Position numbers and translations under genes: made by a program
The notes under the pieces: generated by a model
What the model was told of the DNA's origin: nothing
Databases searched by the model: none
Seen by the model: only the letters and a program-made list of their open reading frames with translations
Assembly (NCBI GenBank): GCA_045539815.1
Contig: JAZQGC010000009.1
Location: forward strand, 9,064 to 73,063
DNA from: Candidatus Enterousia sp.
Lineage (GTDB): Bacteria > Pseudomonadota > Alphaproteobacteria > Rs-D84
Direction: 5' to 3'
Length of the DNA: 64,000 bases
Shown: piece after piece, positions 1,360 to 15,933 of the stretch
Position numbering within the stretch: the stretch's first letter is position 1
Layout of the letters: each line of letters opens with the position of its first letter

Positions 1360-3645
1360 ATGCAAATCGTTATGGCAAAGAAATCAAAGTTTTTACCAGA
1401 ACGTGTTTCTGGGGCGCTAAAAAATCTGGGGCAACGTATTGTTGGCGCAGTTATTTGTTTGTTGGGCTTGTGGGCAACGCTGGCAATGGTGTTGTTGAAC
1501 CCGTGGTTGGATGGTTTTGCGGTATCCAGTACATTTGGTAATCAATATCTGATGGGAAACATTGTGGCGTTTGTGCGATATGTGTTTGGATTTATCCCGG
1601 GGCTGTTTTTATGTCTGTGTGTGTCCAGATGGGGGGCGGTGAAGTTTATCGCATTAAACGATAATGTGGCCCCAGAATATAATTTCTTGCGCGGGTTTGT
1701 TGCGTTGTGTGTCGGGGCGGTTGGGTTTGGATTAATTGCGCCAAGTGCAACATATGGTGGATTGTTGGGGGCGATTGCCGCAGATGATTTATGGTTACTT
1801 GTTGGAAATGCGGCTGTTGTGGTTGGAATTTTATGTCTGTTGGCTTTTGTTGGATTGGGGGCGATTTTATTACATATAAAATGGTCTCATTTGCGTTGGG
1901 GGGCCAAGGTTTTGGGTTATTGGCTGCGATTGATTGCAGGGGCATTCCATCTGAGTAAAAACGCGCAGCAGATTAAATTTAATGCAGACGATGGTGATGA
2001 TGTTCCTGAAACAGCAGATACAGAAAATACAGACAATGCGGGCACAGAAGACGATGGAAATGCAAAACAAAAACGCAGCTTGCTAAGAAAAAAAGTTGAT
2101 AAAAAAGTTGTTGCGCCGGTCGCCACCGTCAGTGCCGTAAAACCACGCGCTGGTGCGGCATATCAGTTGCCAGAACCAAGATTTTTAGAACGGTCTAATT
2201 TCAGCAAGTATTCTGTTACGCCAGAATTGAAACAAAATGCACGAAATATGGAAACACATTTTGCAGAATATGGTGTGTTTGGCAAAGTGGTGGGAATAAA
2301 GCCGGGACCAATTGTCACTTTGTATGAATTTGAACCTGATACCGGTATGCGTATCGCCGATATTACAAAAACGGTCAAGGATATGACACGTGCAATGGCA
2401 ACAGAAAATATTCGTATCGCACATATACCACGTACAAACTATGTTGGCGTTGAAATGGTTAATATTAAACGGCAAACGGTGCGTTTCAGGGGACTGGTTG
2501 AAAATCCTGTGTTTGTGGAATCTAAATACAGAATACCGTTGGCGTTGGGGGTTGATATTGGTGGAAATCCAATGTATTTTGATTTGGCAAAAATGCCGCA
2601 TATGTTGGTTGCTGGACGTACTGGGTCTGGTAAGTCTGTGTTTGTTCAGTCTATTATAACATCGATTGTTTATCATTTTACACCAGATAAATGTAAGTTA
2701 ATGATTATTGACCCAAAAGGTGTTGATTTTGGTTTCTGGGATGATATTCCACATCTGATAACACCAATCGTCAAGTTGGACCCAGGGGCCGCTGTAAACG
2801 CATTAAAGTGGGCCGTAAGGGAAATGGAAGAAAGATATAAACAATTACAGGTCTTGAACGCCAGAAATATAGAAAGCTATAATGAAATGGCGGCAGAAAA
2901 ACGTGCCAATGGCGAGAAATTAACCAAACAAGTTGCCGTTGGTACAGACGAAGAAACAGGCGAATTGTTGTTCGAAACCCAAGAAGTTGATTTGTCTGAT
3001 ATGCCGTATATCGTAATCGTTATTGACGAGGTGGCAGACCTGATGAGTTTGGCACGCAAAGAAGTTGAAGCGTGTGTTCAACGTATCGCACAAAAGGCAC
3101 GTGCCGCAGGTATTCATTTGGTTATGGCAACACAGCGACCAGATGCCACAACAATTACAGGTGTTATCAAAGCGAACTTTCCAACGCGTGTTTCTTTCCA
3201 GGCGCGCAGTCGTATTGACAGCGTTACAACATTGGGCGAAGGTGGCGCGGAACAGTTGTTGGCAATGGGGGACATGTTGTTTAGCGAGGCCGGACGCGTG
3301 CCTGTTCGTATTCATGGCGCGTTCATAGATGATAGCGAATTAAACAGAATAGGGGATTTCTTGCGTTCACAAGGGACACCAGAATATGCAGACGGTGTAA
3401 CAGATGGTGAAGATGTCGCTGGTGCAGATATGGGTATGGTATCCGGTGGGGGCGCGGGTGCAGACAAGGATTCTGATTATGCACGTGCCAAGGAATGTGT
3501 GTTGCGTGATAAAAAACCAACGATTTCTTATATCCAACGCAGATTGCAGATTGGGTATAACAAGGCCGCCGGGTTTATGGAACGTATGGAACAAGAAGGA
3601 ATTGTCAGTGCGCCTGATGCAAATAATAAACGACATATATTATAA
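1360..3645 (+). CDS. ftsK: DNA translocase FtsK
   Basis: N-terminal TM helices and an acidic linker are followed by the Walker A motif VAGRTGSGKSV. A C-terminal gamma-domain-like segment is present (ISYIQRRLQIGYNKAAGFMERMEQEGIVS). Confidence 0.9.
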   Translation: MQIVMAKKSKFLPERVSGALKNLGQRIVGAVICLLGLWATLAMVLLNPWLDGFAVSSTFGNQYLMGNIVAFVRYVFGFIPGLFLCLCVSRWGAVKFIALNDNVAPEYNFLRGFVALCVGAVGFGLIAPSATYGGLLGAIAADDLWLLVGNAAVVVGILCLLAFVGLGAILLHIKWSHLRWGAKVLGYWLRLIAGAFHLSKNAQQIKFNADDGDDVPETADTENTDNAGTEDDGNAKQKRSLLRKKVDKKVVAPVATVSAVKPRAGAAYQLPEPRFLERSNFSKYSVTPELKQNARNMETHFAEYGVFGKVVGIKPGPIVTLYEFEPDTGMRIADITKTVKDMTRAMATENIRIAHIPRTNYVGVEMVNIKRQTVRFRGLVENPVFVESKYRIPLALGVDIGGNPMYFDLAKMPHMLVAGRTGSGKSVFVQSIITSIVYHFTPDKCKLMIIDPKGVDFGFWDDIPHLITPIVKLDPGAAVNALKWAVREMEERYKQLQVLNARNIESYNEMAAEKRANGEKLTKQVAVGTDEETGELLFETQEVDLSDMPYIVIVIDEVADLMSLARKEVEACVQRIAQKARAAGIHLVMATQRPDATTITGVIKANFPTRVSFQARSRIDSVTTLGEGGAEQLLAMGDMLFSEAGRVPVRIHGAFIDDSELNRIGDFLRSQGTPEYADGVTDGEDVAGADMGMVSGGGAGADKDSDYARAKECVLRDKKPTISYIQRRLQIGYNKAAGFMERMEQEGIVSAPDANNKRHIL

Positions 3646-3661
3646 GGTGTTTTTTATTCTT

Positions 3662-3689
3662 TTGTATCGTGGCGTTTTGTGATATAATT
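3662..3689 (+). promoter_or_regulatory. sigma70-like promoter (-35 TTGTAT / 16 nt / TG-n-TATAAT) upstream of the OMP gene
   Basis: ttgtat at 3662-3667 and tgatataat at 3681-3689. The RBS aaaggag lies at 3697-3703 and the ATG at 3713. Confidence 0.4.
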
Positions 3690-3712
3690 TTATTTAAAAG
3701 GAGTATCTTATT

Positions 3713-4993
3713 ATGAAAAAACAGTTGGGTTTATTGTTTGGAACGTTGTTTGCGTTGTGTGGCGCAGATGCATCTGCGGCGACAACGTGGGGAATGCGTG
3801 CCGGGTCCAGTGCAGATTTGTCCACTGGGGCGTCAACGCGTACACAAGAAAGCGTTAATTATAAAAAATATCAGACGCGTTCAACAACATATGAAACAAA
3901 AGACGCAGGTGATTTATATTATACAAAACCACAAAATCGCAGCGCATTGTATAAACAATACGAAGGTGCAAATTCTTCGTCTGCACGCGTAACTAAAAAG
4001 ACTGTGCGCAAGACCCGTTCTGAAACGGTTATTAATAAAATGAAGCGTAAATATTATTTGGCGCATCCGTTCTTTCAACCATTGCAGGGCAAGTTTGGTT
4101 CAATTACAGATTTGTCGTATTTGTCATCTGAATATGATATTAAATTGCCGACCGGGGGGTCTGGACTGTATGCAGATTTAGGAAATGGTATTCAAGAGCT
4201 GTCTTTTAATGGACTGGAAGGGAATTGGAACAGATCTGAATTGTTGATAAAAGAAGATTTTAGCTATGGTATTACAGACCGCTTGGCGTTGCTTGTAATG
4301 GCACAATATAATTCAACAGACGATGAATATAAATGGGCCGCTGGTACAGGTGACAAGATTAGCAACAAGGGCCTGAATATGTATGGCGCAGGTGTACAGT
4401 GGCGCTTTGTTGATAATAATAAATGGATTGCAACAGCGTCCGCTTATTATCAACATCAAAAAGATATTTCTAATAATTTCTTGTTAGACATCAAGGCAGG
4501 ATACAAGATTGCACAATCAACCATTTATGGTTTGGCACGCGGTTGGTATCTGGATTTTGAAGGCGACTATTATGGCAATGGTGTTGTTGGTAAAGATTTG
4601 AATAATCAAGACAGCGCGTTTATGTTGGTATATGGTGATGGCGGCAGCGCCAGGTTTATAGAAGGGGGAATTGGTGTTTTCAGTGTGTTAAATCCTGATT
4701 GGACGCTGAATCTGGAAGCCGTTCTGGGGGATTATGATTGGCATACCCAGGCAAATATCAAGGGGGCAATTGGTTGGCAACCAAATGATTGGTTTGCGTT
4801 GAACCTGTATGCAAAAACTGTGTTTTACAGCGATGTTGATGGTAAAAAGCTGGATACACTGTATTGGTTAGATGGTGTCTATGAAGATAGTCAATTGCAA
4901 AAACCGTTAACATATTTTAAAAATATTGGAATGTCTGAATTGGATAACTATTCTGAATATTCAATTGGTGTTCAGGCAATATTCCAGTTCTAG
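3713..4993 (+). CDS. outer membrane beta-barrel protein (signal peptide, C-terminal Phe)
   Basis: Signal peptide MKKQLGLLFGTLFALCGADASAA. The sequence has alternating amphipathic strands and ends in QAIFQF. Family not identified. Confidence 0.55.
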   Translation: MKKQLGLLFGTLFALCGADASAATTWGMRAGSSADLSTGASTRTQESVNYKKYQTRSTTYETKDAGDLYYTKPQNRSALYKQYEGANSSSARVTKKTVRKTRSETVINKMKRKYYLAHPFFQPLQGKFGSITDLSYLSSEYDIKLPTGGSGLYADLGNGIQELSFNGLEGNWNRSELLIKEDFSYGITDRLALLVMAQYNSTDDEYKWAAGTGDKISNKGLNMYGAGVQWRFVDNNKWIATASAYYQHQKDISNNFLLDIKAGYKIAQSTIYGLARGWYLDFEGDYYGNGVVGKDLNNQDSAFMLVYGDGGSARFIEGGIGVFSVLNPDWTLNLEAVLGDYDWHTQANIKGAIGWQPNDWFALNLYAKTVFYSDVDGKKLDTLYWLDGVYEDSQLQKPLTYFKNIGMSELDNYSEYSIGVQAIFQF

Positions 4994-5011
4994 GAACTGT
5001 ATCAATGTCTT

Positions 5012-5055
5012 GTATTGCCCCGATATATCTTGTGGGGCAATACATGTGTTTTTTT
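5012..5055 (+). terminator. intrinsic terminator after the OMP gene
   Basis: Stem gtattgcccc (5012-5021) pairs with ggggcaatac (5034-5043), followed by a T-run. Confidence 0.55.
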
Positions 5056-5074
5056 AGGAGAGAGGAAACCGATT

Positions 5075-5812
5075 ATGCATAAACTTTTATCTGTATTTTT
5101 TGCGTCTGTTTTAGTGGCACTGCCAATGGTGGCCGGGGCGAATTCGTTGGAACATGATTCTTCGGATCCGTTGTATTTGCTGGCAGATGAAGAAATTTTA
5201 AGTAAGTCGAATATCGCTTATTGGGATCATATGTTGCGTGTTGGACAAAGTGTTTCGTATGGTCTGAACAGCCGTTTGGCAATCGGGGCAGATGTGCATT
5301 ATCAACATCATTTTAATGGTGATGAAGATGGTTTTTCTGCCGTTGATTTTGGGGCAATTTATCGTGTAACCCAACCAGGTGATATAAAATCTAATATTAT
5401 TACAGATTTATTGTTGGGATTTAAAATCGGAGGCAGTTCGCATGTGCGTACGCCGTATTATGCAGATTCTACATATTATGCAGGTGTGCGTTTTGGGCGT
5501 CAATGGGCCGGGATGACGTTGGCAGCAACAATAAAATCTAATTGGGTGTTTGATGATGAACGCGGGATGTCTTTTATTGATTTAACACCCGAAGCTTATT
5601 TCAGATTGTCACCAGATTGGCGTATCGGTGGCGGTTTTACAATTCGTAAAGCAACAAATAAAGATGCACAAACAGGTGATGATTATGACCAAGAATGGTT
5701 GCATATGAAATTAGTGCGTCAGTATGGTCGAACACAATATATCGGACATATTGATTACGAATTTGAAAGCGATGATGTTCAAATCGGTGCAAAGTTAAAT
5801 ATTTTGTTCTGA
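5075..5812 (+). CDS. outer membrane beta-barrel protein (MipA/OmpV-like size)
   Basis: RBS aggagagagg precedes the ATG at 5075. Signal peptide MHKLLSVFFASVLVALPMVAGA. The protein ends in LNILF. The upstream in-frame extension from 5015 lies inside the terminator hairpin. Confidence 0.5.
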   Translation: MHKLLSVFFASVLVALPMVAGANSLEHDSSDPLYLLADEEILSKSNIAYWDHMLRVGQSVSYGLNSRLAIGADVHYQHHFNGDEDGFSAVDFGAIYRVTQPGDIKSNIITDLLLGFKIGGSSHVRTPYYADSTYYAGVRFGRQWAGMTLAATIKSNWVFDDERGMSFIDLTPEAYFRLSPDWRIGGGFTIRKATNKDAQTGDDYDQEWLHMKLVRQYGRTQYIGHIDYEFESDDVQIGAKLNILF

Positions 5813-5848
5813 TAAAAAAAATCCCCGTTTTTGGGGATTATTTTTTTT
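5813..5848. terminator. bidirectional intrinsic terminator
   Basis: A8-atcccc-gttttt-ggggat-T9 lies between the convergent OMP (+) and rarA (-) genes. Confidence 0.7.
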
Positions 5849-7109
5849 GATTTATTTTATCGCGTAACGCGTCCCAATAATCCAGACGCTTTTTTATTTC
5901 GCGTTCAAAACCACGCTCAACAGGGGTATAGAATCTTTGTCGGCCCATTGATTCGGGAAAACAATTTTGACCGGAAAAACTGTTTGGGGTGTCAGGATCA
6001 TAAATATAACCTTGGTTGTATCCCATTTCTTTCATCATTTTTGTTGGGGCGTTTAATATGTTTTTTGGGGGTGGCAAAGAACCAGTGCTGCGCGCAGCGG
6101 CGTATGCAGCCTTTTGTGCGCGATAGTTGCCGATGCTTTTTGGTGCCGTTCCAAGATATATTACCAATTGTGTTAATGCCAAATCCCCTTCGGGACTGCC
6201 CAGGCGTTCGTATGCCTGCCATGCAGAAATTGCAATTTGTAATGCGTTCGGATCGGCCAGACCAATGTCTTCGACAGCAAAACGGGTCAGACGACGAAAT
6301 ATATACATGGGATCCTGGCCAGATGTAATCATGCGCGCAGTCCAATACAGGGCGGCGTCAGTGTCACTGGCCCGAAGTGATTTATGAATCGCAGATATTA
6401 AATTATAATGTTCGTCGCCGTGTTTATCTGACATTGGGGCACGACGATGTATGGCGCCGGCCAATGTTTCTGGGGTCAGTTCCGATTGAAAATTGGCGTT
6501 CGCCAGATATTCGATGGTGTTTAACATGAAACGTGCGTCACCATCAGACATCTGGGCCAGATAAATGCGTGCCGCATCGTTTAATGGTAATTTTTTGTTT
6601 AAAAAGTTTTCTGCGCGCGATATCAATGTTAATAATTCATCGGTTGATAATGCAGATAAAACACCAATATGACAACGGGATAACAATGCGTTGTTCAAAT
6701 TAAAACTGGGGTTTTCTGTTGTTGCACCCATGAATACAACGGTGCCATCTTCTAAATAAGGTAACAGGGTGTCTTGTTGTGTTTTATTAAAGCGATGTAT
6801 TTCATCAATAAATAATAATGTGTTGCGTCCAATGTCTTGGTTCATGCGTGCGGCATCCATGGCCTTTTTTATGTCGGCTGTCCCAGAAAATACGGCAGAC
6901 ATTGGAACAAAATCCATGTCAACAGAATTTGCCAATGCGCGGGCAATTGTTGTTTTGCCACATCCTGGGGGACCCCATAATATCAGGTTTGATAATTTCT
7001 TGTTATCAACCATGCGGCGAATTAAACCGTTTTCGCCCAATAATAAAGACTGACCAATAATGTCATCAATTGTGTTGGGGCGCATTAAATCTGCCAATGG
7101 ACGTGTCAT
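5838..7109 (-). CDS. rarA: replication-associated recombination protein A (AAA+ ATPase RarA/MgsA)
   Basis: Walker A motif LILWGPPGCGKTT and Walker B motif LLFIDEIHRFNK, with RarA-like C-terminal helical domains. Confidence 0.85.
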   Translation of the reverse strand: MTRPLADLMRPNTIDDIIGQSLLLGENGLIRRMVDNKKLSNLILWGPPGCGKTTIARALANSVDMDFVPMSAVFSGTADIKKAMDAARMNQDIGRNTLLFIDEIHRFNKTQQDTLLPYLEDGTVVFMGATTENPSFNLNNALLSRCHIGVLSALSTDELLTLISRAENFLNKKLPLNDAARIYLAQMSDGDARFMLNTIEYLANANFQSELTPETLAGAIHRRAPMSDKHGDEHYNLISAIHKSLRASDTDAALYWTARMITSGQDPMYIFRRLTRFAVEDIGLADPNALQIAISAWQAYERLGSPEGDLALTQLVIYLGTAPKSIGNYRAQKAAYAAARSTGSLPPPKNILNAPTKMMKEMGYNQGYIYDPDTPNSFSGQNCFPESMGRQRFYTPVERGFEREIKKRLDYWDALRDKINQKK

Positions 7110-7112
7110 GTT

Positions 7113-7538
7113 GTGGTTAACTTTTTTTTATATATTATTTGTGATATAATGATTGTATTAAATTACAAAGGAATTGGCAAGTTGGTAAATAAAAATTATG
7201 ATTTTACATTGGCTGTTGCAAATCTGGCCGCGGCGGCAATTAATGCAAATCCTGAATTGTCCATGCAAGATGCGGTAAATAACGCACGTGAAATTCTGCG
7301 CGGAACAACAATAACAAAACAACAAATCGAAGATTCTGTACAGTACGATAAGATTCAATGTCTGGAAGATGGTACATGGCATGTTATGTTGCGCAGATAT
7401 TTAAAACGCAGATTTAATATGACACCACAACAATATAAGCAAAAGTGGGGATTGCCGGATGATTATCCATTTGTTGCGGCTGCGTATTCTGATAAACGAT
7501 CAAAAATTGCCAAGAAAAATAAACTGGGTAAAAAATAA
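7113..7538 (+). CDS. MucR/Ros-family transcriptional regulator (start uncertain: GTG 7113, ATG 7149 or TTG 7182)
   Basis: The C-terminal segment IQCLEDGTWHVMLRRYLKRRFNMTPQQYKQKWGLPDDYPFVAAAYSDKRS aligns with the Ros/MucR zinc-finger region (ITCLECGK…[20 protein letters not shown]). The second Cys and both His ligands are replaced. Confidence 0.6.
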   Translation: MVNFFLYIICDIMIVLNYKGIGKLVNKNYDFTLAVANLAAAAINANPELSMQDAVNNAREILRGTTITKQQIEDSVQYDKIQCLEDGTWHVMLRRYLKRRFNMTPQQYKQKWGLPDDYPFVAAAYSDKRSKIAKKNKLGKK

Positions 7539-9560
7539 TTGTGTGCAAAGGATTGCTGTATGAAAGTCTGTGTTGATATCCATGATAAACGTTGGAATAA
7601 ATATAATATTGATTTTGATAAAATTGTCTGTGCGGCGGTTTCTGGCGTACGCAAGGATTCTGAGGTTTCAATTATCTTGACTGATGATGCTGAAATTCAT
7701 GGTGTGAACAAGCAGTATCGTGGTGTGGATAAACCGACAAATGTTTTGTCGTTTGAATTGGGTGATGATATTTTATTGGGTGATATTTATATATCGTTAG
7801 ATACTGTAAAGCGCGAGGCTGAACAGGCCGGTATCAGTGTCGAAGATCATGTTACGCATATGGTTGTGCATGGGGGATTGCATTTGTTGGGCTATGATCA
7901 TATTACCGATGATGAAGCGTCTGTCATGGAAATGAAGGAAATAAAAATATTAAAAAAGTTGGGAATAAAAAATCCTTATACGGATGATGTGGTGTCGTCA
8001 TGTAAATGCGGTGATTGTTGCCCCGGTGGTTGTTTTGTCGCAGGAATAAAAAAATTAAAAATAAAGCAAAATGGTTTTATGCAATACTTTCTGTACGGCG
8101 TATTTGGTGTGTTGGCCAGTTTGGGGTTTGCACCGTTTTATTATGGTTTGTTTACGGTCTTGGGGGTTGCTGGTGCGTATTGGTTGACGGTCAGAAATAC
8201 GGATAAAAGTGGGCTTTGGAAGACATTGTTGCGTGTTTCGCCGTTTGGCGCGTTGTATTGTTTGTCTATGTTTTGGTGGGTATTAAATTCTATATATGTT
8301 GTGCCAGAAATTGCGTCGCAATACGCAATATGGACACTGCCCGGGGTCGTTGGATTAATGCTGGCCGGTGTGATGATATTTTCATGGCCGTTTATTGCCG
8401 TGACCAAGGTTCGTGCAAATGCCATGGGGCGTGTTTTCTTGTTCGCGTCCGTATGGGTGTTAGTGTTGTGGGCGCGTGAGTGGATGTTTACTGGTTTCCC
8501 ATGGAACCCGATTGCAAATATCGCAATGCCGTATCCAGTGTTGGCAAATTCAATGTCTGTTTTCGGTGCGCTGGGGTTAAGTTTTTTAATTGTTGGTTTG
8601 ATTGCGTCTGTTGTTGAAGTGTGCAGAAGAAAAAAATATGCAATTTATACATTTGTTTTCTTTGTGTTGTTGGCTGTATGCGCATGTTTTGCTGGGGTGC
8701 ATAATATGCGATTGGCCGATGTTGGTGCCACGGATGAACATGTTATGTTGCGAATTGTGCAACCTGGATTGTCGCAAAGTCAAAAGGCCACCCATAACAG
8801 GGTAGAGGCATTGCAAAAAGCATCAGATAATTTATATAATTTAGTAAAATTGGCAAATGTTGATAATAATGCTGATATTATTTTGTTCCCAGAAACGGCG
8901 TATCCCTTTGTTGTTATGAAAGATGATTTGATAGATGTTGCAAGATATCTGAATAAGCCAATGTTAATTGGTGCAAATGTTTTTGACGCGGGCGGTTTAT
9001 TTAATTCGATGGTTGTAGCCCAAGAAAATGGCCGTATACAACAGATTTATAGCAAGACACATTTGGTGCCGTTTGGTGAATATAGGCCGTTGGGGGTTTT
9101 GCCGTCACCAGTTAATTTAACGCCTGGTAATGGACCGGAAATTATAAGTGTTGGAAATTTTGTTTTTGCACCGGCGATTTGTTATGAAATTATTTTTTCT
9201 GATTCTTTGTTAGAATCTGGGGTGGGGCGTGTTGATGCAATTGTTAATCTGACAAATGATAATTGGTTTGGTAATACGCCGGGCGTTTATCAGCATCTGG
9301 ATATGGTGCGCCGTTATGCCATTGAGTCAGGGGTGCCAATTGTGCGTGCAAATTATTCTGGTATCAGCGCATTTGTTGCGTCAGATGGTGAAATTATTTC
9401 TGCGTTGCCGGTTGGCGCAGTTGATGTGTTGGATGGTTTTGTATGGGGCGCACATCAAACACCATATCGACAGATTGGATTAAATGGTTGGTTGATAATT
9501 ATTTTGTCTGTATCTGTGTTTGGGATTTTTATATCAAAGCTGATAGATCGTAAAAATTAA
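7539..9560 (+). CDS. ybeY/lnt: in-frame fusion ORF: endoribonuclease YbeY domain (N-terminal ~150 aa) joined to apolipoprotein N-acyltransferase Lnt (C-terminal ~510 aa)
   Basis: The YbeY H3xH zinc motif HMVVHGGLHLLGYDH is present. A Cys-rich linker VVSSCKCGDCCPGGCF follows, then the Lnt TM region (LGFAPF, EWMFTGFPWNP) and a CN-hydrolase domain (ILFPETAYP…). There is no stop codon between the two domains. Confidence 0.75.
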   Translation: MCAKDCCMKVCVDIHDKRWNKYNIDFDKIVCAAVSGVRKDSEVSIILTDDAEIHGVNKQYRGVDKPTNVLSFELGDDILLGDIYISLDTVKREAEQAGISVEDHVTHMVVHGGLHLLGYDHITDDEASVMEMKEIKILKKLGIKNPYTDDVVSSCKCGDCCPGGCFVAGIKKLKIKQNGFMQYFLYGVFGVLASLGFAPFYYGLFTVLGVAGAYWLTVRNTDKSGLWKTLLRVSPFGALYCLSMFWWVLNSIYVVPEIASQYAIWTLPGVVGLMLAGVMIFSWPFIAVTKVRANAMGRVFLFASVWVLVLWAREWMFTGFPWNPIANIAMPYPVLANSMSVFGALGLSFLIVGLIASVVEVCRRKKYAIYTFVFFVLLAVCACFAGVHNMRLADVGATDEHVMLRIVQPGLSQSQKATHNRVEALQKASDNLYNLVKLANVDNNADIILFPETAYPFVVMKDDLIDVARYLNKPMLIGANVFDAGGLFNSMVVAQENGRIQQIYSKTHLVPFGEYRPLGVLPSPVNLTPGNGPEIISVGNFVFAPAICYEIIFSDSLLESGVGRVDAIVNLTNDNWFGNTPGVYQHLDMVRRYAIESGVPIVRANYSGISAFVASDGEIISALPVGAVDVLDGFVWGAHQTPYRQIGLNGWLIIILSVSVFGIFISKLIDRKN

Positions 9561-9587
9561 TTTTATTAAAATAAATATGTGTTATAT

Positions 9588-9821
9588 TTATATCGACACT
9601 TGGTGTTCAAGTGTTGGGTGTGATATAATTTGTTGTAAAACCCATACGCGTATCGCAGATGATAAATTTTTGTCGGGAGAGCGGTTGGAATCTATGTCGT
9701 TTATAATTGCTGCAACCGAACGATTCTGCCGTATAGCCAGTTTTTGTAATGCGTCAAAAAATTCTGGTTCCAGTGTGATGCTGGTTTGATGACCAGATAG
9801 TGAAACTGATATTTTTTTCAT
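9588..9821 (-). CDS. ribbon-helix-helix protein (RHH_4-like, alphaproteobacterial conserved)
   Basis: The sequence ISVSLSGHQTSITLEPEFFDALQKLAIRQNRSVAAIINDID…NLSSAIRVWVL matches the RHH_4 family pattern. Confidence 0.55.
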   Translation of the reverse strand: MKKISVSLSGHQTSITLEPEFFDALQKLAIRQNRSVAAIINDIDSNRSPDKNLSSAIRVWVLQQIISHPTLEHQVSI

Positions 9822-9825
9822 TTCT

Positions 9826-10260
9826 TTATATCTTTCCTGCGATTAAACAGTCGAACATTGCGCGATAGCCGTCATCGTATTTGCGCAATGGTGCCAATGA
9901 TATGTTATCCAACATATAAAATACACCAAACGCATCAAATGCAAACCAAAATAAATCGTTGCGACCAAATAATGTTTTGCCAAATGTTTTGCCCAGGCCA
10001 GACATGTCGTCATTTATCTTTAATATACTGGGGATTGGATAGGTGTTATTGCGTGGTGTTTCGTCGGGTGCGAATATGTATCCTGTATCAAGATTGATAC
10101 TGCCCGCGTGACGATATAATTCAGATATCTCGGGCGGTAACATTGCAAAACGACGTTGTTGCAGTGCGCCATTTAATAACATTATTTGATTTGCGTGTGC
10201 AGGTGGTGCAATTTTTGCGCCACGGGATTTAATTGTTGCTAAGAATTCTTGACATGTCAT
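9826..10260 (-). CDS. hypothetical protein (144 aa)
   Basis: ORF with protein-like composition, in a co-directional operon arrangement. No recognisable motif. Confidence 0.45.
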   Translation of the reverse strand: MTCQEFLATIKSRGAKIAPPAHANQIMLLNGALQQRRFAMLPPEISELYRHAGSINLDTGYIFAPDETPRNNTYPIPSILKINDDMSGLGKTFGKTLFGRNDLFWFAFDAFGVFYMLDNISLAPLRKYDDGYRAMFDCLIAGKI

Positions 10261-10286
10261 GCGATTCCTGCTTGGTCCTGTTGTTT

Positions 10287-10796
10287 TTATAAATCGCGAT
10301 CAGATACGATTTGGGCCGCGATTGTTTCTGTTATGCGGTCTTCGGTTGCGTTTCCGCCCGTGCCACCCAGACTGGAACTGGCAGGCAGGTATATCTTTTT
10401 TGCCGGATTTGGTAACCATATTTGTGAATTTCCGTGCTGGGATATAATAAATTTGTCCAAGTTAAATGAATGCGGAAATGTTTTGCAAATAAACAGGTTG
10501 TCCATATCCAGTTGTCCGCCCATCTGTAACGGTATGCGAAAACGAAAAGACAGGTTTTTTGGCATTGTGTTACCGGTTAATAAATTCATAAATTCGTCCT
10601 GGCTTAGGTTTAACATTACCAATGTGTCGACGCTGTCTGACAATGTGGACATGAATTTTTTACATAAAATTTTGTATTTATTAAACCAGTCTGGGGTTAA
10701 TTTTGTCGCATTTGGTGTTATCAAACGCAGGGGTAAATCTTTCATCCCCATATCAGAAACTATTCTTTTTGCATCTTGTTCAGTCAATTTTGCCAT
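10287..10796 (-). CDS. hypothetical protein (169 aa)
   Basis: Its start overlaps the stop of the upstream gene (ATGA at 10796). No recognisable motif. Confidence 0.45.
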   Translation of the reverse strand: MAKLTEQDAKRIVSDMGMKDLPLRLITPNATKLTPDWFNKYKILCKKFMSTLSDSVDTLVMLNLSQDEFMNLLTGNTMPKNLSFRFRIPLQMGGQLDMDNLFICKTFPHSFNLDKFIISQHGNSQIWLPNPAKKIYLPASSSLGGTGGNATEDRITETIAAQIVSDRDL

Positions 10797-11686
10797 TAAA
10801 TCTTGCCTATGTAGTCAATAACAGTTGATATATACATGGAAAATGCTTCGAAATTTTCAGGGTCCTGGGCAGGTTGGTTTTCGTGTTCCGACATATATTT
10901 CCGTAATTCTTCAACAGATTCAAATGTTAATATAGATTCTGTTGGGGCAGGTGCGGTTGGATTTACAACAAATCCATGAATGTTTATATCAATGTTGTCC
11001 AGTGTGTCTGAAAATACCTGTTGCAGGGCGGATACCGCATCAATAATGCGTTCGGGCGCAACAGATGACGCGCCGATATATACCGTTTCGTTTGTGCCAA
11101 TCGCAAATACAGGAACGGTAAAGCCGTGAATTCGTGGCGATGGTTTAATTGTATATTTGGCGTTTTCAAAGATGTCCAGAATCTGGGGTGTGTCTGGTAA
11201 TTCTGGTGCTGGCATGCCCCTGGAAATGTTTGGCATCGTGGTCGCCGGTGTGTTTACAGGCGTTGATGCCGGTGTAATGGTGCCCGGTTGTGGTGATATT
11301 GGCGCTGTGGGTGTGTTGGATAATCTTTGTGGGCGAACAGGTGTGTTGGGCGCAATGGTGTTGATAACAGGTGTTGCGTTCTGTTCATGGGGGGGCGGTG
11401 TCTTTTTTGATGTGCGTTTCAAGAAAGCGATTCGTATGCTTTTTATCTGGGGGTGGACCAGCATGTAAGATCCAATCAATATAATCATGCCAGATATTAT
11501 TATGGACAGATAAAAAGATGTCTTGATTGGTGTTTGTGATGCCTGCATATATGACAAATAGCGCCAATGTGCACCAGAAAAGATATCAAAGCCAAATTGC
11601 GTATTAAACCAAAAACATGTTGTCAGTATCGCGATTAATAACCACAATACTACAAGTAAAATTTTATTTAATTTATCCGTCTTCAT
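10796..11686 (-). CDS. hypothetical membrane protein with Pro/Thr-rich linker and C-terminal globular domain
   Basis: Two N-terminal TM helices, a P/T-rich low-complexity segment of about 90 aa, and a C-terminal domain of about 130 aa. Confidence 0.5.
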   Translation of the reverse strand: MKTDKLNKILLVVLWLLIAILTTCFWFNTQFGFDIFSGAHWRYLSYMQASQTPIKTSFYLSIIISGMIILIGSYMLVHPQIKSIRIAFLKRTSKKTPPPHEQNATPVINTIAPNTPVRPQRLSNTPTAPISPQPGTITPASTPVNTPATTMPNISRGMPAPELPDTPQILDIFENAKYTIKPSPRIHGFTVPVFAIGTNETVYIGASSVAPERIIDAVSALQQVFSDTLDNIDINIHGFVVNPTAPAPTESILTFESVEELRKYMSEHENQPAQDPENFEAFSMYISTVIDYIGKI

Positions 11687-11727
11687 GATTGGTATTGTAT
11701 CATATTTATGATAAAGTAAAAAGCATT

Positions 11728-12402
11728 ATGATGAATAAAAATATTATTTTTGATGATTTGTCCGATGTTGTCGCCGTCTGGTGCGGGGCAGATATAGAAG
11801 CAGCAGAATTAGCGCGTATGGTTGATAATGTGTCCAGACAAAATGTTGGCGCGTTGTCTGTTGTGCCGACGGCGGTGCCTGTGGTATGGCCGTGGATGGA
11901 GGAAATGAAAACTAAAATATTTGCGCGGTTTTATTTCCCAAACAGTGAAATATCCGATGACCAGATATCTGATGTTACAATCAGAATAAATAACGCATTT
12001 AAACAAGGTGCACATGGCGCCCAGATTTTCATGCCGTATGCGGCGTTGGCCAATTTGGTTGAACAGACACATGTTATCAGGGGGGATTTGTTCTTTAATA
12101 AAGATTTGGTTATCGGTATTGATATTGCGGATATTGCGTCGTCTGATTTGGATGAATTGTTTGGAAATTTACGCAAGATAAACGCATCTGCATTGATGCT
12201 GGTTTTGACCAAGGATTTGGGGGCAAAATCTGACTTTGTTGGGCGTTTGTACGGTTTGTTGGAAAATTGGAACAGTGCAAACAATTTTGATTTGCATTTT
12301 GCGCTGGGGCGGAATTTTGTGCGTATAGAACAAGCCGCGCGATTAATCCAGGTCATGCAACCCCAGTTGGCAAAAAAAATGAAGTTCTTTGTTAATTACT
12401 GA
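11728..12402 (+). CDS. hypothetical protein (faint DeoC-like TIM-barrel pattern at N-terminus; unassigned)
   Basis: Divergent from the minus-strand operon. The N-terminal pattern IIFDDLSDVVAVWCGADIEAAELARMV…GALSVVPTAVPVV loosely resembles the deoxyribose-phosphate aldolase N-terminus. Confidence 0.45.
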   Translation: MMNKNIIFDDLSDVVAVWCGADIEAAELARMVDNVSRQNVGALSVVPTAVPVVWPWMEEMKTKIFARFYFPNSEISDDQISDVTIRINNAFKQGAHGAQIFMPYAALANLVEQTHVIRGDLFFNKDLVIGIDIADIASSDLDELFGNLRKINASALMLVLTKDLGAKSDFVGRLYGLLENWNSANNFDLHFALGRNFVRIEQAARLIQVMQPQLAKKMKFFVNY

Positions 12403-13019
12403 TTGCGTAACAACAGATATTTTGGTGCGGCGGTGCCAGCCTTGTTTTTATGTTGATATCGTGTTTGTATAATTTCCATATCTGGGATTGTTGCGGATAA
12501 ATTTGTTTGTTTTAATTGTTCCAATATCCAGTCAAAATATTCCCAATGGTCTGTACCAATGATAATTTCGCCATCGTCAGATAAATTTTTTGATAATGTG
12601 TTTAAAAAATCGGCGGACAGTAATCGGCGTTTTTCGTGGCGGGCCTTGGGCCATGGGTCAGGGTGCAGTATCCAAATTTGACTGAATTTCGAATCGGCCC
12701 TGCGCAGGAAATCACGAACATCGTCCGCCCATATGCGGATGTTTTTGTATTCGTCCAATACACGATTCGAATTTTGGTCTGTAATCGCAGACAGCAGACT
12801 TGCCACGCCGTTCATAAATGGTTCGGCGCCAATGATAATTTTGTCTGGGTTATTGCGTGCCAGGTCGCGTACATGTTCGCCGGCACCAAATCCAATTTCC
12901 AAAATATCGCCGGTTTCAGGCGCTAATGATGGCAACAGGTTGGTAATTAAGTCCTGTTGACGGATTGATAATTTTTTGCCATGACGGCGGCCAAATGTTC
13001 TTATTTCTTGTTTTTCCAT
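12396..13019 (-). CDS. trmB: tRNA (guanine46-N7)-methyltransferase
   Basis: SAM-binding motif ILEIGFGAGEH and C-terminal IWILHPDPWPKARHEKRRL. The ATG at 13017-13019 is preferred over the upstream TTG/ATG. Confidence 0.85.
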   Translation of the reverse strand: MEKQEIRTFGRRHGKKLSIRQQDLITNLLPSLAPETGDILEIGFGAGEHVRDLARNNPDKIIIGAEPFMNGVASLLSAITDQNSNRVLDEYKNIRIWADDVRDFLRRADSKFSQIWILHPDPWPKARHEKRRLLSADFLNTLSKNLSDDGEIIIGTDHWEYFDWILEQLKQTNLSATIPDMEIIQTRYQHKNKAGTAAPKYLLLRNQ

Positions 13020-13067
13020 ATATTTAGTATAGAATTGAGTAACTAAAAACACAAGGATTATATAGAT

Positions 13068-13625
13068 ATGGCCGAATTTCCAAAACGAATCGATTGTGGT
13101 GATTTTGAAATGGTAAAACCCGAAGTGTCTTTTGCGCGCGCAAAAGAATTCTATGATGTTGTTGTAAAAAACAAGGATTTTTTATCCCAATGGTTGGAAT
13201 GGACGGCCAGATATTCTAAACCAGAAGTGGCGTTTGATTATTTAAGAATGATAGAGCCCACGAACGAGCCTTCTTATTTAATTGTTGTTGATGATAAAAT
13301 TGTAGGGGGGCATGGCTTTGTTGATTTTAATGAAAGGAATAAAACAGCTGAAATTGGCTATTGGTTAGCGCCACAGTTTAATGGTCGTGGTTTGGTTACC
13401 CGTGGAATTAAATTTTTAGAAGATTTGGCATTCGGGCAGTTGGGAATAAATCGGATGCAGATACAGATAGATGTAAATAATGTAAAATCACAAGCCGTCG
13501 CAATTCGTGCGGGATATAAAAACGAAGGCGTTCTGCGTCAAGCATATGTTTTGCGTAGTGTGCCACATGATGTTATTATGTATTCGAAATTAAAATCAGA
13601 ATGGGAAAAGGAAAAAGTAAAATGA
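13068..13625 (+). CDS. GNAT-family N-acetyltransferase (RimJ/RimL-like)
   Basis: GNAT motif A region GFVDFNERNKTAEIGYWLAPQFNGRGLVTRG. Confidence 0.75.
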   Translation: MAEFPKRIDCGDFEMVKPEVSFARAKEFYDVVVKNKDFLSQWLEWTARYSKPEVAFDYLRMIEPTNEPSYLIVVDDKIVGGHGFVDFNERNKTAEIGYWLAPQFNGRGLVTRGIKFLEDLAFGQLGINRMQIQIDVNNVKSQAVAIRAGYKNEGVLRQAYVLRSVPHDVIMYSKLKSEWEKEKVK

Positions 13626-15199
13626 GAAATGGTTTATCAAAAGATTTAATTGCGCGTGTGTTGGGCGGTGCGCCAAAATATACAATTGCAGAACTGGAAG
13701 AAAAATTCCCAGCCCGTAATTTGCCTGATGGTGCAATGGTGACAAGATTTGCGCCAAGTCCAACAGGGTATATGCATATTGGTGGATTGTATGGCGCATT
13801 GATAGACTGTAAATTGGCACAACAGTCAAGTGGTGTTTTTATGTTGCGTATCGAAGATACAGATACAAAACGTGAAGTCGCAGATGCGGTAAAAATTATT
13901 GAAGAATCGATGGATTGCTTTGGATTGAACTATAATAATGATTCTGTTTATGGACCGTACTATCAGTCGCAACGCAAAGAGATTTATCATTCTGTTGCTG
14001 CGGAATTGTTGGCTTTGGGGCGTGCTTATCCTTGCTTCTTGTCGGCAGAAGATATGGAAAAAATTCGTGAAAATCAAAAGGCGGCTGGCTTTGCAACGGG
14101 GATTTACGGCGAATTTGCACGTGATCGTGATTTGACAGAACAAGAAATTATTGCGCGTCTTGATAACGGGTTGGTACCATCGATTCGTTTGTATTCAGTT
14201 GGTAATCCAGAACAAAGAATTTTCTGCAAGGATGCGGTGCGTGGTTCAATTGGATTCCCAGAAAATAACGAAGATATTGTTTTGATTAAATCAAATGACG
14301 GGTTGCCAACGTATCATTTTGCGCATTTGTGCGATGATCACTTTATGCGTACAACGCATGTTATTCGTGGTGAAGAATGGTTGCCTTCGTTACCGTTACA
14401 TGCACAATTGTTTCGAATGATGGGATGGAATTCGCCGTTGTATATTCATACTTCTACGATTGATAAAATTGATGAAGAAACGGGTAAACAACGAAAATTA
14501 TCAAAGCGAAAAGACCCAGAGGCAAATGTGGCGTTCTTTTTACAAGCGGGCTGGCCAGTGGAATCTGTAATTGAATATCTGGGAAATATTGCCGCATCTG
14601 GTTACGAAGAAGCAAAAATGAAAGGACAGGTAAAAACATTTTGGGATTATGAAATGCGACCAAAGAAAATCCCAATGTCAGGTGCGTTGTTTGATATGAA
14701 AAAACTGGAATGGTGGGCGAAAGAGTTTATCGGTTCGTTGCCAGTGCCAGAATTGGTTGCGCGTGTTGTGAATTGGGCCAATGAATATGGTAATGATACA
14801 AACAAAATGCAGGTCGCAGATGTTGATTACCTGACTGGCGTTCTGGGTATTGAACGTGATAATCCAAAGCGTGTACGCAAAGACTTTATTACTTGGTCCC
14901 AGACATTGGAAAATGTTGCGTTTTTCTGGGACGAATTGTTTGTGCCAAATACAGAATATGAATTTAATAAAGACGCATTGCGCGCGTTCTTGGCAACATA
15001 TAATGCGGCAGATGATAAAGACGTATGGTGGGCAAAAATTGTTGCTGTTGCCGAAAGTATAGGTATAAAAAATGGTGATGTGGCAATGAATTTGCGTGTG
15101 GCGTTGTCGGGACGCACAAATACACCTGATTTATATTCAATAATGTCTGTTATGGGCGCGGAACGCGTAACAAAACGAATCGAAGGAGCGATTAAATGA
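13622..15199 (+). CDS. gltX: glutamate--tRNA ligase (class I; discriminating status unknown)
   Basis: HIGH-type motif APSPTGYMHIGG and the KMSKS-like motif KLSKRK. The start overlaps the GNAT gene stop. Confidence 0.85.
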   Translation: MRNGLSKDLIARVLGGAPKYTIAELEEKFPARNLPDGAMVTRFAPSPTGYMHIGGLYGALIDCKLAQQSSGVFMLRIEDTDTKREVADAVKIIEESMDCFGLNYNNDSVYGPYYQSQRKEIYHSVAAELLALGRAYPCFLSAEDMEKIRENQKAAGFATGIYGEFARDRDLTEQEIIARLDNGLVPSIRLYSVGNPEQRIFCKDAVRGSIGFPENNEDIVLIKSNDGLPTYHFAHLCDDHFMRTTHVIRGEEWLPSLPLHAQLFRMMGWNSPLYIHTSTIDKIDEETGKQRKLSKRKDPEANVAFFLQAGWPVESVIEYLGNIAASGYEEAKMKGQVKTFWDYEMRPKKIPMSGALFDMKKLEWWAKEFIGSLPVPELVARVVNWANEYGNDTNKMQVADVDYLTGVLGIERDNPKRVRKDFITWSQTLENVAFFWDELFVPNTEYEFNKDALRAFLATYNAADDKDVWWAKIVAVAESIGIKNGDVAMNLRVALSGRTNTPDLYSIMSVMGAERVTKRIEGAIK

Positions 15200-15933
15200 C
15201 AAATGAAAAGAAAGCCAGAATCAAGGCTGTTAAAAAAGATTCTCATGCGTCACAATTGTTAAAGGTGTTGCGTGCAACAGGGTTGTTTCGTTGGGAAAAG
15301 CCCTGTTCAAAATCAGAAGAAGTTGTAAATATTTTAACCCATGGAATTGGTATTGGTATTGCAATTGCCGCGTTGACACTGTTGGTGGTGTTTGCCGGAT
15401 TAAAGGGCGACCCATGGGCAATTGTGTCGTGTGCGATTTTTGGTGTGACAATGATAACCCTTTATTTTGGTTCAACGATGTGTCATGCAACCATTGGTAA
15501 AAAATCAGAATGCTTTTTTGAAGTGTGGGACAGTGTTGCAATCTATGCATTGATTGCAGGTACGTATACGCCGTTTTTGTTGGTGAATCTGCGTGGCTTA
15601 ATTGGGTGGACTGTGTTTGGAATTTTATGGGGAATTGTTTTGTTCGGTTCTTATATGAAAATAAAAAATCCAAAACAGCAACCACGTTGGATGGTGGCAT
15701 TATATGTTGCGATGGGGTGGACATTGTTATTCATATTGCCGGCAATGATTCATAATATCCCGATTCGCGGTCTGTGGTTTATCTTGGCGGGTGGCCTGTC
15801 TTATACGATTGGGGTGATATTTTATCTGTGGCGTCGTATGAAGTTTTCACACGGCGTGTGGCACCTGTTTGTAATCGGGGGCAGTGTATGTTTCTTTTTC
15901 GCTGTCTTGTTCGGATGTATATTAGATAAATAA
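15196..15933 (+). CDS. hemolysin III family (PAQR/YqfA) membrane protein
   Basis: Seven TM helices and the N-terminal conserved segment NILTHGIGIGIAIAAL…MCHA. Confidence 0.8.
   Translation: MTNEKKARIKAVKKDSHASQLLKVLRATGLFRWEKPCSKSEEVVNILTHGIGIGIAIAALTLLVVFAGLKGDPWAIVSCAIFGVTMITLYFGSTMCHATIGKKSECFFEVWDSVAIYALIAGTYTPFLLVNLRGLIGWTVFGILWGIVLFGSYMKIKNPKQQPRWMVALYVAMGWTLLFILPAMIHNIPIRGLWFILAGGLSYTIGVIFYLWRRMKFSHGVWHLFVIGGSVCFFFAVLFGCILDK

Follow-up and report, generated by a model that had tools for sequence, protein, structure and literature searches.

A core operon of the order Rs-D84 is probably an exapted, catalytically dead HNH-toxin/YrhA-immunity module

A 64,000-nt stretch of a Candidatus Enterousia sp. 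genome (contig JAZQGC010000009.1; hereafter the window) carries five genes between ybeY-lnt and trmB, namely a minus-strand operon encoding the proteins p296, p169, p144 and RHH77, and a divergent gene encoding p224. The operon was read as an exapted and catalytically dead module of an HNH toxin and a YrhA-type immunity protein, equipped with a membrane anchor and a ribbon-helix-helix (RHH) regulator, and we assign this reading a probability of roughly 0.6. The ancestry of the p169/p144 pair and the degeneration of its active site were shown by sequence analysis, and from these we infer how the module may work at present. The first-pass annotation of the region had described five uncharacterised genes, four of them in a tightly packed minus-strand operon ending in an RHH_4 gene, and this layout was confirmed by the list of open reading frames (ORFs) and the sequence itself. 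An intact catalytic motif is indeed recognisable in none of the five genes, but the ancestry of two can now be recognised, with p169 related to the HNH toxin domain of YhhZ and p144 to the wider YrhA family.

Scanned as single sequences against Pfam, NCBIfam, PADLOC and PHROGs, the five proteins returned RHH_4 and one weak YrhA match and nothing else. No family among the PADLOC-DB models matched any of them at E up to 1, and PDB sequence searches with single proteins and clade profiles gave nothing usable; two PDB profile matches were dropped, one as a His-tag artefact and the other as a chance match. p169 was recognised by neither the library nor the PDB sequence searches. An exhaustive HMMER search with a clade profile recovered 79 representatives, including proteins of 140-420 aa that carry the p169 domain at their C-terminus, and these remote homologues were aligned with the p169 clade (alignment A5). 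Compared with E. coli YhhZ by hhalign, A5 reached a probability of 98.4% (E 9.7e-15, 128 aligned columns), and p169 residues 15-139 were aligned with YhhZ 254-384. YhhZ, annotated as a 'putative endonuclease', has a T6SS_HCP domain and a weak Pfam HNH match at residues 322-343, and in E. coli yrhA lies directly after yhhZ, overlapping its stop codon. Since p169 aligns with YhhZ and is likewise followed by a YrhA-family gene, it can be concluded from these comparisons that the p169/p144 pair is homologous to the pair formed by the YhhZ C-terminal domain and YrhA.

A first AlphaFold2 run of p169 on 20 clade sequences gave a predicted local distance difference test score (pLDDT) of 58 and was discarded, and the modelling became usable only after the remote homologues had been added. 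With A5, a pLDDT of 89.9 and a predicted template modelling score of 0.79 were obtained, and the model contains a beta-beta-alpha unit at residues 82-119, made of two strands (82-86 and 101-105) and a helix (106-119). A Foldseek search of predicted structures, which the first-pass annotation had proposed, was run for p169 and yielded no significant match in PDB or BFVD, although HNH domains headed both lists, the top non-significant matches being Cas8-HNH, the ZRANB3 HNH and phage HNH endonucleases.

Most of the distant p169 homologues carry H85, N100, H110 and H114 in A5, with a VHH motif in YhhZ, and 34 of the 36 distant homologues with His85 also have a His at position 110 and/or 114. One strand-1 His combined with two helix His is the pattern of derived HNH domains (PMC3113570). 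Within the window clade, the same positions are R85, N100, S110 and D114, with R85 and D114 found in 81/81 sequences and S110 in 74/81. Altogether N81, S83, R85, R87, N100, C104, T106, D114 and Q120 are invariant in the 81 sequences, while P89 and Q120 are the only invariant positions across the superfamily. The fixed replacement of the His residues, together with a median dN/dS of 0.11 (a rough ratio, as dS was near saturation), argues that p169 is a pseudo-enzyme under selection and not a decaying gene. The C-terminal tail of the protein (residues 140-169; 10287-10370) was modelled with low AlphaFold confidence and contains the invariant residues G147, G148, N149, T151, D153 and R154. Just upstream of it, P129, P131, K134, Y136 and P138 are invariant as well, and a motif related to PxPxGKVYxP...GG...DR is kept in distant homologues. 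Judged by these residues, the tail is probably a partner-binding segment.

The protein encoded next to p169 was examined with the same kinds of models. Of 26 p144 orthologues, 25 match the NCBIfam model NF038335 (YrhA), all below its cut-off and with a best E of 6.4e-10. The small genes that follow p169 homologues in loci L086, L087, L092 and L091 pass the YrhA cut-off with 57-68 bits, and they match the p144 hidden Markov model (HMM) at E 9e-14 to 5e-7. Weak Pfam matches of the orthologues were to SUKH_6 (5/26, best E 0.028) and SMI1_KNR4 (3/26), and the top PDB profile match of p144, weak at E 0.25, was 2ICG, which is listed as a SUKH structure (Zhang, Iyer and Aravind 2011, PMC3113570). Proteins of the SUKH type confer immunity to HNH toxins (PMC3113570). 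Taken by these profile matches, p144 is a diverged YrhA relative and not a member by the NCBI rule. Its pairing with p169 extends beyond the clade, as a p169 gene followed by a p144-like gene also occurs in L083, L084, L086, L087, L088, L091 and L092.

The gene contexts of the distant relatives differ with the state of the HNH residues. In each of the three inspected loci with an intact-HNH relative (L086, L087 and L092), its gene lies directly downstream of one for a VirD4/TraG-type coupling protein, and a YrhA-family gene comes next. L086 has p296-like paralogues upstream of the coupling-protein gene (HMM E 2.6e-12), and L087 has weak p296-like candidates (E 0.35) and a weak TrbL/VirB6-like gene. 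Degenerate-HNH members are found in operons of p296-like, p169, p144-like and RHH_4 genes (window clade, L083, L088/L089 and L091), and a partly degenerate member in L084 belongs to a bare pair of p169-like and p144-like genes. Comparison of the degenerate and the intact contexts reveals that the window operon matches the coupling-protein loci in gene order, except that the gene for the coupling protein is missing. A co-occurrence of the families in other genomes, considered by the first-pass annotation, was thereby found, with the four-gene operon recurring in three other genomic contexts (L083, L088 and L091).

The intact H-N-H-H proteins themselves (L086, 6001-7719; L087, 9846-11372; L092, 6001-7017) are unannotated and YhhZ-like, and the long forms linked to the type IV coupling protein (T4CP) begin with 'MWDWSGSK' and continue with a long P/Q-rich region. 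They are candidates for nuclease toxins delivered by a type IV secretion system (T4SS) in uncultured Alphaproteobacteria. In L084, genes for proteins of 582 and 704 aa with prepilin-like N-termini (e.g. GYTMMEMIAVLGIF) lie divergently beside the bare pair (1945-5818, minus strand).

The first gene of the operon encodes a protein with two hydrophobic segments, which show Kyte-Doolittle values above 1.6 in windows starting from aa 3-12 and 53-63. A conserved FGFNIFSxxHW loop lies between the two hydrophobic helices in 26 orthologues, and an N-in/C-in topology is predicted for p296 from the Lys/Arg-rich flanks and the positive-inside rule. The linker that follows varies in length and sequence but retains an RPPRLN motif, in which R118, P119, R121 and L122 are invariant or nearly so. 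The C-terminal domain is acidic with an isoelectric point of 4.3. Distant p296 homologues gave sub-threshold matches to the NERD domain (PF08378) that span model positions 12-110 of 111, and the clade proteins are without two segments (~34 and ~19 aa) and the D and DxE residues that are conserved in the distant homologues. With low confidence, the C-terminal domain may be taken as a trimmed, NERD-like and cytoplasmic domain. A ZipA-like identity of p296 was rejected, as the likeness is one of architecture alone, with no homology.

The distribution of the cluster was followed in a scan of one genome per species, in which 210 genomes encode p169 and from which the best 80 loci were taken for synteny; these 80 are mostly labelled Candidatus Enterousia or metagenome-assembled genomes (MAGs) from ruminant or equine gut. 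Close homologues of p169 number 275 and come without exception from uncultured gut Alphaproteobacteria, with a length of ~167 aa and 53-75% identity. Each of the genes has hundreds of homologues and is thus far beyond a chance ORF. As far as the contigs reach, tblastn found the order gltX-(GNAT)-trmB / p224 <> p296-p169-p144-RHH77 / ybeY-lnt to be identical in 80/80 loci, and the neighbouring genes rarA, mucR, ybeY-lnt, trmB and gltX are likewise syntenic across the clade loci. The median identity to the window protein decreased from trmB (84%) through RHH77 (71%), YbeY-Lnt (63%), p144 (62%), p169 (57%) and p224 (50%) to p296 (41%). For closely related pairs, the median dN/dS was 0.13 for RHH77, 0.14 for p144, 0.19 for p296 and 0.24 for p224, next to 0.11 and 0.12 for the controls trmB and gltX, and these ratios are as rough as that of p169.

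The same gene order in all 80 loci and the housekeeping-like dN/dS indicate that the cluster is part of the core gene set of the order Rs-D84, passed on vertically and not a recent acquisition. The first-pass annotation had called it an island, a term that does not fit an arrangement that is invariant across the clade, resembles its flanks in composition (GC 0.35-0.48 within the cluster and 0.37-0.45 in the flanks) and carries no sign of mobility. Such signs were absent from the ORF list, the repeat scan and the Rfam search of the region, with no tRNA scan run; the Rfam search, covering 7000-15500, found no RNA family. The idea of a mobile defence island was refuted by the synteny. The further proposal of a lineage-specific cluster of unknown function was supported, and the conserved synteny on which it depended is perfect in 80 species. 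Enterousia, a member of the order Rs-D84, has genomes of <1 Mbp, and an obligately symbiotic or parasitic life is predicted for these organisms (PMC12306168).

RHH77 is the best-recognised of the four operon products, with a match to Pfam PF13467 (RHH_4) of 77.9 bits (E 5.8e-22, threshold 25) that covers its residues 2-64 and model positions 2-66 of 67. It was found in 79/82 loci, the remaining ones being cut by contig ends, and an RHH_4 gene also follows the p144-like gene in L083, L088 and L091. A search of the literature on RHH_4 and PF13467 returned nothing relevant. The region between the divergent starts of p224 and p296, noticed by the first-pass annotation as common to both genes, was confirmed with a length of 41 bp in the window, and it measures 41-44 bp in 71/72 species. 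Identity averages 0.86 per column, and 28 of the 44 columns reach 90% or more, compared with 41-50% for the flanking proteins; the consensus reads CTTTtTAcTTTATCAyAAATATGATAcAAT. Two divergent extended -10 boxes, TGATACAAT towards p296 and TGATAAAGT towards p224, are each followed by the ATG after ~7-11 nt, and the 41-bp region has no Shine-Dalgarno sequence, so that the starts are leaderless-like. The palindrome TATCATAAATATGATA has a single exact match in the window, and its core is nearly invariant in 72 species. It is centred in the inverted repeat I1, whose 33-nt arms (11672-11704 and 11707-11739) are 73% complementary. On this evidence, the palindrome and the intergenic region around it are likely the operator of RHH77, which is presumed to be an autoregulator of the operon.

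In the reading that we favour, the module would derive from coupling-protein-linked ancestors and would have lost both its coupling-protein partner and its killing role. p169 would no longer cleave DNA by the HNH mechanism and would instead act as a non-catalytic binder of a nucleic acid or a protein partner, staying in complex with p144. This complex may be recruited by p296 to the cytoplasmic face of the inner membrane, while RHH77 would bind the palindrome and repress both divergent promoters. In organisms of ~900 genes, the module might have been kept through an acquired role in housekeeping or in partner interaction. A more far-reaching version is tentative and, in our judgement, rather doubtful: a nuclease toxin, its immunity protein and a membrane nuclease-like protein, once linked to a T4CP, would now form a membrane complex in which both active sites are dismantled and which has become indispensable across the order. 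It could serve nucleic-acid tethering or sensing, or contact-dependent exchange with a partner, with the RHH repressor acting through a non-coding element that ranks among the best conserved in these genomes. An analogy to the adaptors of the Dot/Icm coupling complex (DotM, DotN and IcmSW) was dropped, as it has no sequence support.

Several observations weigh against the exapted-module reading. The loss of the His residues is no proof of lost catalysis, since derived HNH families use other residues (PMC3113570), and the invariant R85, R87, N100 and D114 with the near-invariant H109 might make up an altered site for catalysis or ligand binding. p144 of the window scores 23.6 bits (E 3.9e-5) against NF038335, under the cut-off of 55 bits. 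NERD has no match in the window p296 at E up to 1, and the matches in distant homologues are themselves below the threshold of 22.1 bits (L083, 16.1 bits, E 0.016; L086, 13.3 bits, E 0.12). Outside the clade, the contexts inspected number five. The negative search for a T4CP gene covered the 64-kb window, the 80 clade loci, L083, L088 and L091. Finally, p224 is linked to the operon by position alone, and the near-saturated dS makes the comparison with housekeeping genes a coarse one.

Of the other explanations, the one that survives best is a still-active toxin-antitoxin (TA) or addiction module, which we nevertheless consider unlikely. p169 would be toxic through a remodelled site (R85, R87, H109 and D114) or through binding, p144 would neutralise it, RHH77 would autoregulate, and loss of the module would kill the cell. 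An HNH-toxin and YrhA-immunity ancestry would suit such a function, as would the tight coupling of the genes and an RHH regulator, which is typical of TA loci; the invariant polar residues at the former active site also fit, given that derived HNH families with altered residues exist (PMC3113570). However, the three canonical His residues are absent in 81/81 sequences, and the cluster, which evolves like housekeeping genes, occupies one chromosomal position in 80 species with a single copy per locus and no sign of mobility. Moreover, the RHH gene stands last and lacks the fusion or adjacency to the 'antitoxin' that is seen in classical type II systems, and the operon includes a conserved membrane protein for which TA modules have no need.

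Slightly less likely still is a partnership with a T4SS encoded elsewhere, in which p296 and p144 would be accessory or chaperone factors of a coupling protein and p169 a translocated non-nuclease effector that acts on a partner or host cell. The succession of T4CP, p169-like and YrhA-like genes in L086, L087 and L092, with p296-like paralogues upstream in L086 and weaker candidates in L087, speaks for this, and all parts are predicted to be cytoplasmic or in the inner membrane, where a T4CP acts. The bacteria of Rs-D84 are also predicted to depend on partner cells (PMC12306168). On the other hand, neither the cluster nor its immediate surroundings contain a T4CP in the 80 clade loci, L083, L088, L091 or the window; the genomes are <1 Mbp, and the genome survey of PMC12306168 makes no mention of secretion systems. 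The PQ-rich N-terminal extension ('MWDWSGSK...') of the T4CP-linked forms is missing from p169 as well.

An orphan immunity function, improbable in our view, would have p144 protect the cell against YhhZ-type HNH toxins injected by neighbours, with p169 carried along as a decayed remnant. In its favour, other uncultured Alphaproteobacteria carry intact-HNH relatives, of which at least L086 derives from a MAG of gut origin, and orphan SUKH-type immunity genes that protect gut bacteria are described (bioRxiv 10.1101/2025.05.03.651265). Yet p169 is not decaying, with its dN/dS of 0.11 and many invariant residues, the locus holds a single copy and no arrays, and the partners of intact toxins fit the YrhA model better than p144 does (64-68 vs 23.6 bits), the opposite of what protection would need. 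A functionally unrelated set of five genes, adjacent merely through the frozen gene order of reduced genomes, would agree with the conserved synteny of the whole neighbourhood and with the separation of p224 from the operon in L088, but is very improbable in view of the p296-like/p169/p144-like/RHH_4 block in three unrelated contexts, the p169/p144 pair in at least four more, and the overlapping or near-abutting stop and start codons, which indicate co-translation.

For the favoured reading of an exapted, disarmed module, a comparison with known systems is instructive. The closest is the YhhZ/YrhA pair of an Hcp-HNH toxin and its immunity protein, one of the Hcp-ET1-type pairs of the type VI secretion system; Hcp-ET1 is an HNH-DNase effector (PMC6730261). 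The toxin domain is homologous, the next gene belongs to the YrhA family, and the two are tightly coupled in both cases. In contrast to YhhZ, p169 stands alone without an Hcp or other delivery domain and has neither the HH dyad nor the helix His, p144 falls under the family cut-off, and genes for a membrane protein and an RHH_4 protein belong to the same operon as the pair. Whereas YhhZ/YrhA is a variable accessory locus, the window pair is fixed in the core genome of an order of Alphaproteobacteria. The SUKH-immunity/HNH-EndoVII polymorphic toxins (PMC3113570) similarly combine an HNH-fold gene having a cysteine-free derived core with a small SUKH-related immunity gene downstream. These systems are polymorphic and often multi-copy, with secretion or delivery domains and intact catalytic residues, whereas the window module is monomorphic in organisation, single-copy, catalytically degenerate and conserved in the manner of housekeeping genes.

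Effectors of T4SSs (X-Tfe/X-Tfi) resemble the intact p169 relatives, which lie between VirD4-type coupling-protein genes and immunity-type genes, and TfdA of S. maltophilia is a T4SS-delivered GHH nuclease (a DNase of the HNH superfamily) with an immunity protein (PMC11253643). Unlike X-Tfe proteins, the p169 relatives have no XVIPCD-type signal identified and carry their toxin domain at the C-terminus, and the window operon differs from effector loci by the missing coupling protein and its dead active site. Type II TA systems with RHH proteins (CopG/Arc/ParD-like) likewise place a small RHH gene in one operon with a gene of toxin origin and carry a palindrome in their promoter region. Here, however, RHH77 is a separate fourth gene and not the antitoxin, a membrane protein is present, and neither mobility nor a patchy distribution is seen. 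As to NERD (PF08378), the likeness is confined to the sub-threshold matches of distant p296 homologues and does not extend to the window protein, which is without two segments of the domain and its acidic residues and is anchored by a hairpin of two transmembrane segments and a Pro/Thr linker.

As a rule, toxin-immunity pairs are accessory genes of a variable, selfish or weapon-like kind, and shrunken genomes tend to lose dispensable genes. A fixed, disarmed pair that is conserved like housekeeping genes across an order of ~900-gene organisms is therefore a clear candidate for the domestication of a toxin module. The operon offers a handle on the biology of Rs-D84 and Enterousia, which are abundant and uncultured symbionts or parasites of the animal gut, and ancestry could be assigned to two large families of 'hypothetical proteins'. 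The previously unannotated YhhZ-like HNH family beside VirD4-type coupling proteins hints at T4SS nuclease toxins outside Xanthomonadales. In addition, a compact and highly conserved bidirectional promoter with a candidate operator was defined.

The divergent gene encodes an acidic protein for which the first-pass annotation had given 225 aa, one too many; the preferred start yields 224 aa, and almost all of the 120 listed homologues share this length, while none of the 120 has a Pfam domain. The homologues found are unannotated members of the clade. No Pfam match was obtained for 27 family members and no PDB match with two profiles. The invariant residues of p224 include W54, W56, G94, A95, F122, F123 and R205. 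The gene adjoins the operon divergently in 74 loci and also in L083, while 3 kb separate the two in L088, and p224 accompanies the degenerate-type operon in three lineages. A faint DeoC-like N-terminus, suggested by the first-pass annotation, could be reproduced in register (residues 40-113 against DeoC 43-116), but the hhalign probability was 0.6% (E 0.098) and the proposal was not upheld. An assignment of p224 to the DeoC/LacD class I aldolases was likewise rejected, as the N-terminal third alone aligns, non-significantly, and Pfam and PDB give no support.

The features of the cluster are summarised in Table 1. The gaps are 26 nt between p169 and p144 and 4 nt between p144 and RHH77. For p296 and p169 the first-pass annotation had reported an ATGA overlap, while the actual junction is TAATG (minus strand, 10798-10794), with an overlap of 1 nt. 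Antisense ORFs within the genes, for example at 10249-10821 on the plus strand, were dropped, as they overlap conserved coding frames.

Table 1. Features of the five-gene cluster, in window positions.
Feature	Position	Strand	Description
RHH77	9588-9821	minus	77 aa, RHH_4; last gene of the four-gene operon
p144	9826-10260	minus	144 aa; diverged YrhA-family (SUKH-type) immunity-like protein, putative partner of p169
p169	10287-10796	minus	169 aa; homologue of the YhhZ C-terminal HNH toxin domain, catalytic His replaced
p296	10796-11686	minus	two hydrophobic segments, Pro/Thr-rich linker and C-terminal domain
p296 N-terminal membrane anchor (predicted), aa 1-80	11447-11686	minus	Kyte-Doolittle
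p296 Pro/Thr/Gln-rich linker, aa ~81-164	11195-11446	minus	alignment A4
p296 C-terminal domain, aa ~165-296	10796-11194	minus	conserved in all orthologues
Bidirectional control region, 41 bp	11687-11727	none	between the divergent starts of p296 and p224
Palindrome TATCATAAATATGATA, candidate RHH77 operator	11698-11714	none	
Divergent ORF	11689-12402	plus	p224; preferred start ATG 11728 gives 224 aa (11728-12402)

On either side of the cluster, the first-pass annotation had placed lnt and trmB. The right flank is trmB, whereas the left one is not lnt alone but a single 673-aa ORF without internal stop (7539-9560, plus strand) that joins YbeY (endoribonuclease) and Lnt (apolipoprotein N-acyltransferase). 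A continuous YbeY-Lnt match was also found in 65 related loci, and in L083 one gene of 596 aa is called that combines the YbeY, LNT_N and CN_hydrolase domains; judged from these sequences, YbeY-Lnt appears to be a genuine clade-wide gene fusion. The Ros/MucR-family regulator gene on the plus strand (7113-7538) directly abuts the ybeY-lnt ORF (7538/7539). The GTG given as its start places the N-terminus far upstream of the domain (residues 60-139), and the real start may be internal. In most loci ~2 kb separate ybeY-lnt from mucR, the window and L003 being exceptions. Between RHH77 and ybeY-lnt, ~1.8-3.6 kb of extra DNA is present in L005, L010, L023, L027, L052, L062 and L074, compared with <100 bp in most loci. 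Between trmB and gltX, a GNAT acetyltransferase gene (13068-13625, plus strand) was detected in 38/82 loci with 30-93% identity; in the window its end overlaps the start of gltX (13601), and it marks a variable spot in an otherwise frozen neighbourhood.

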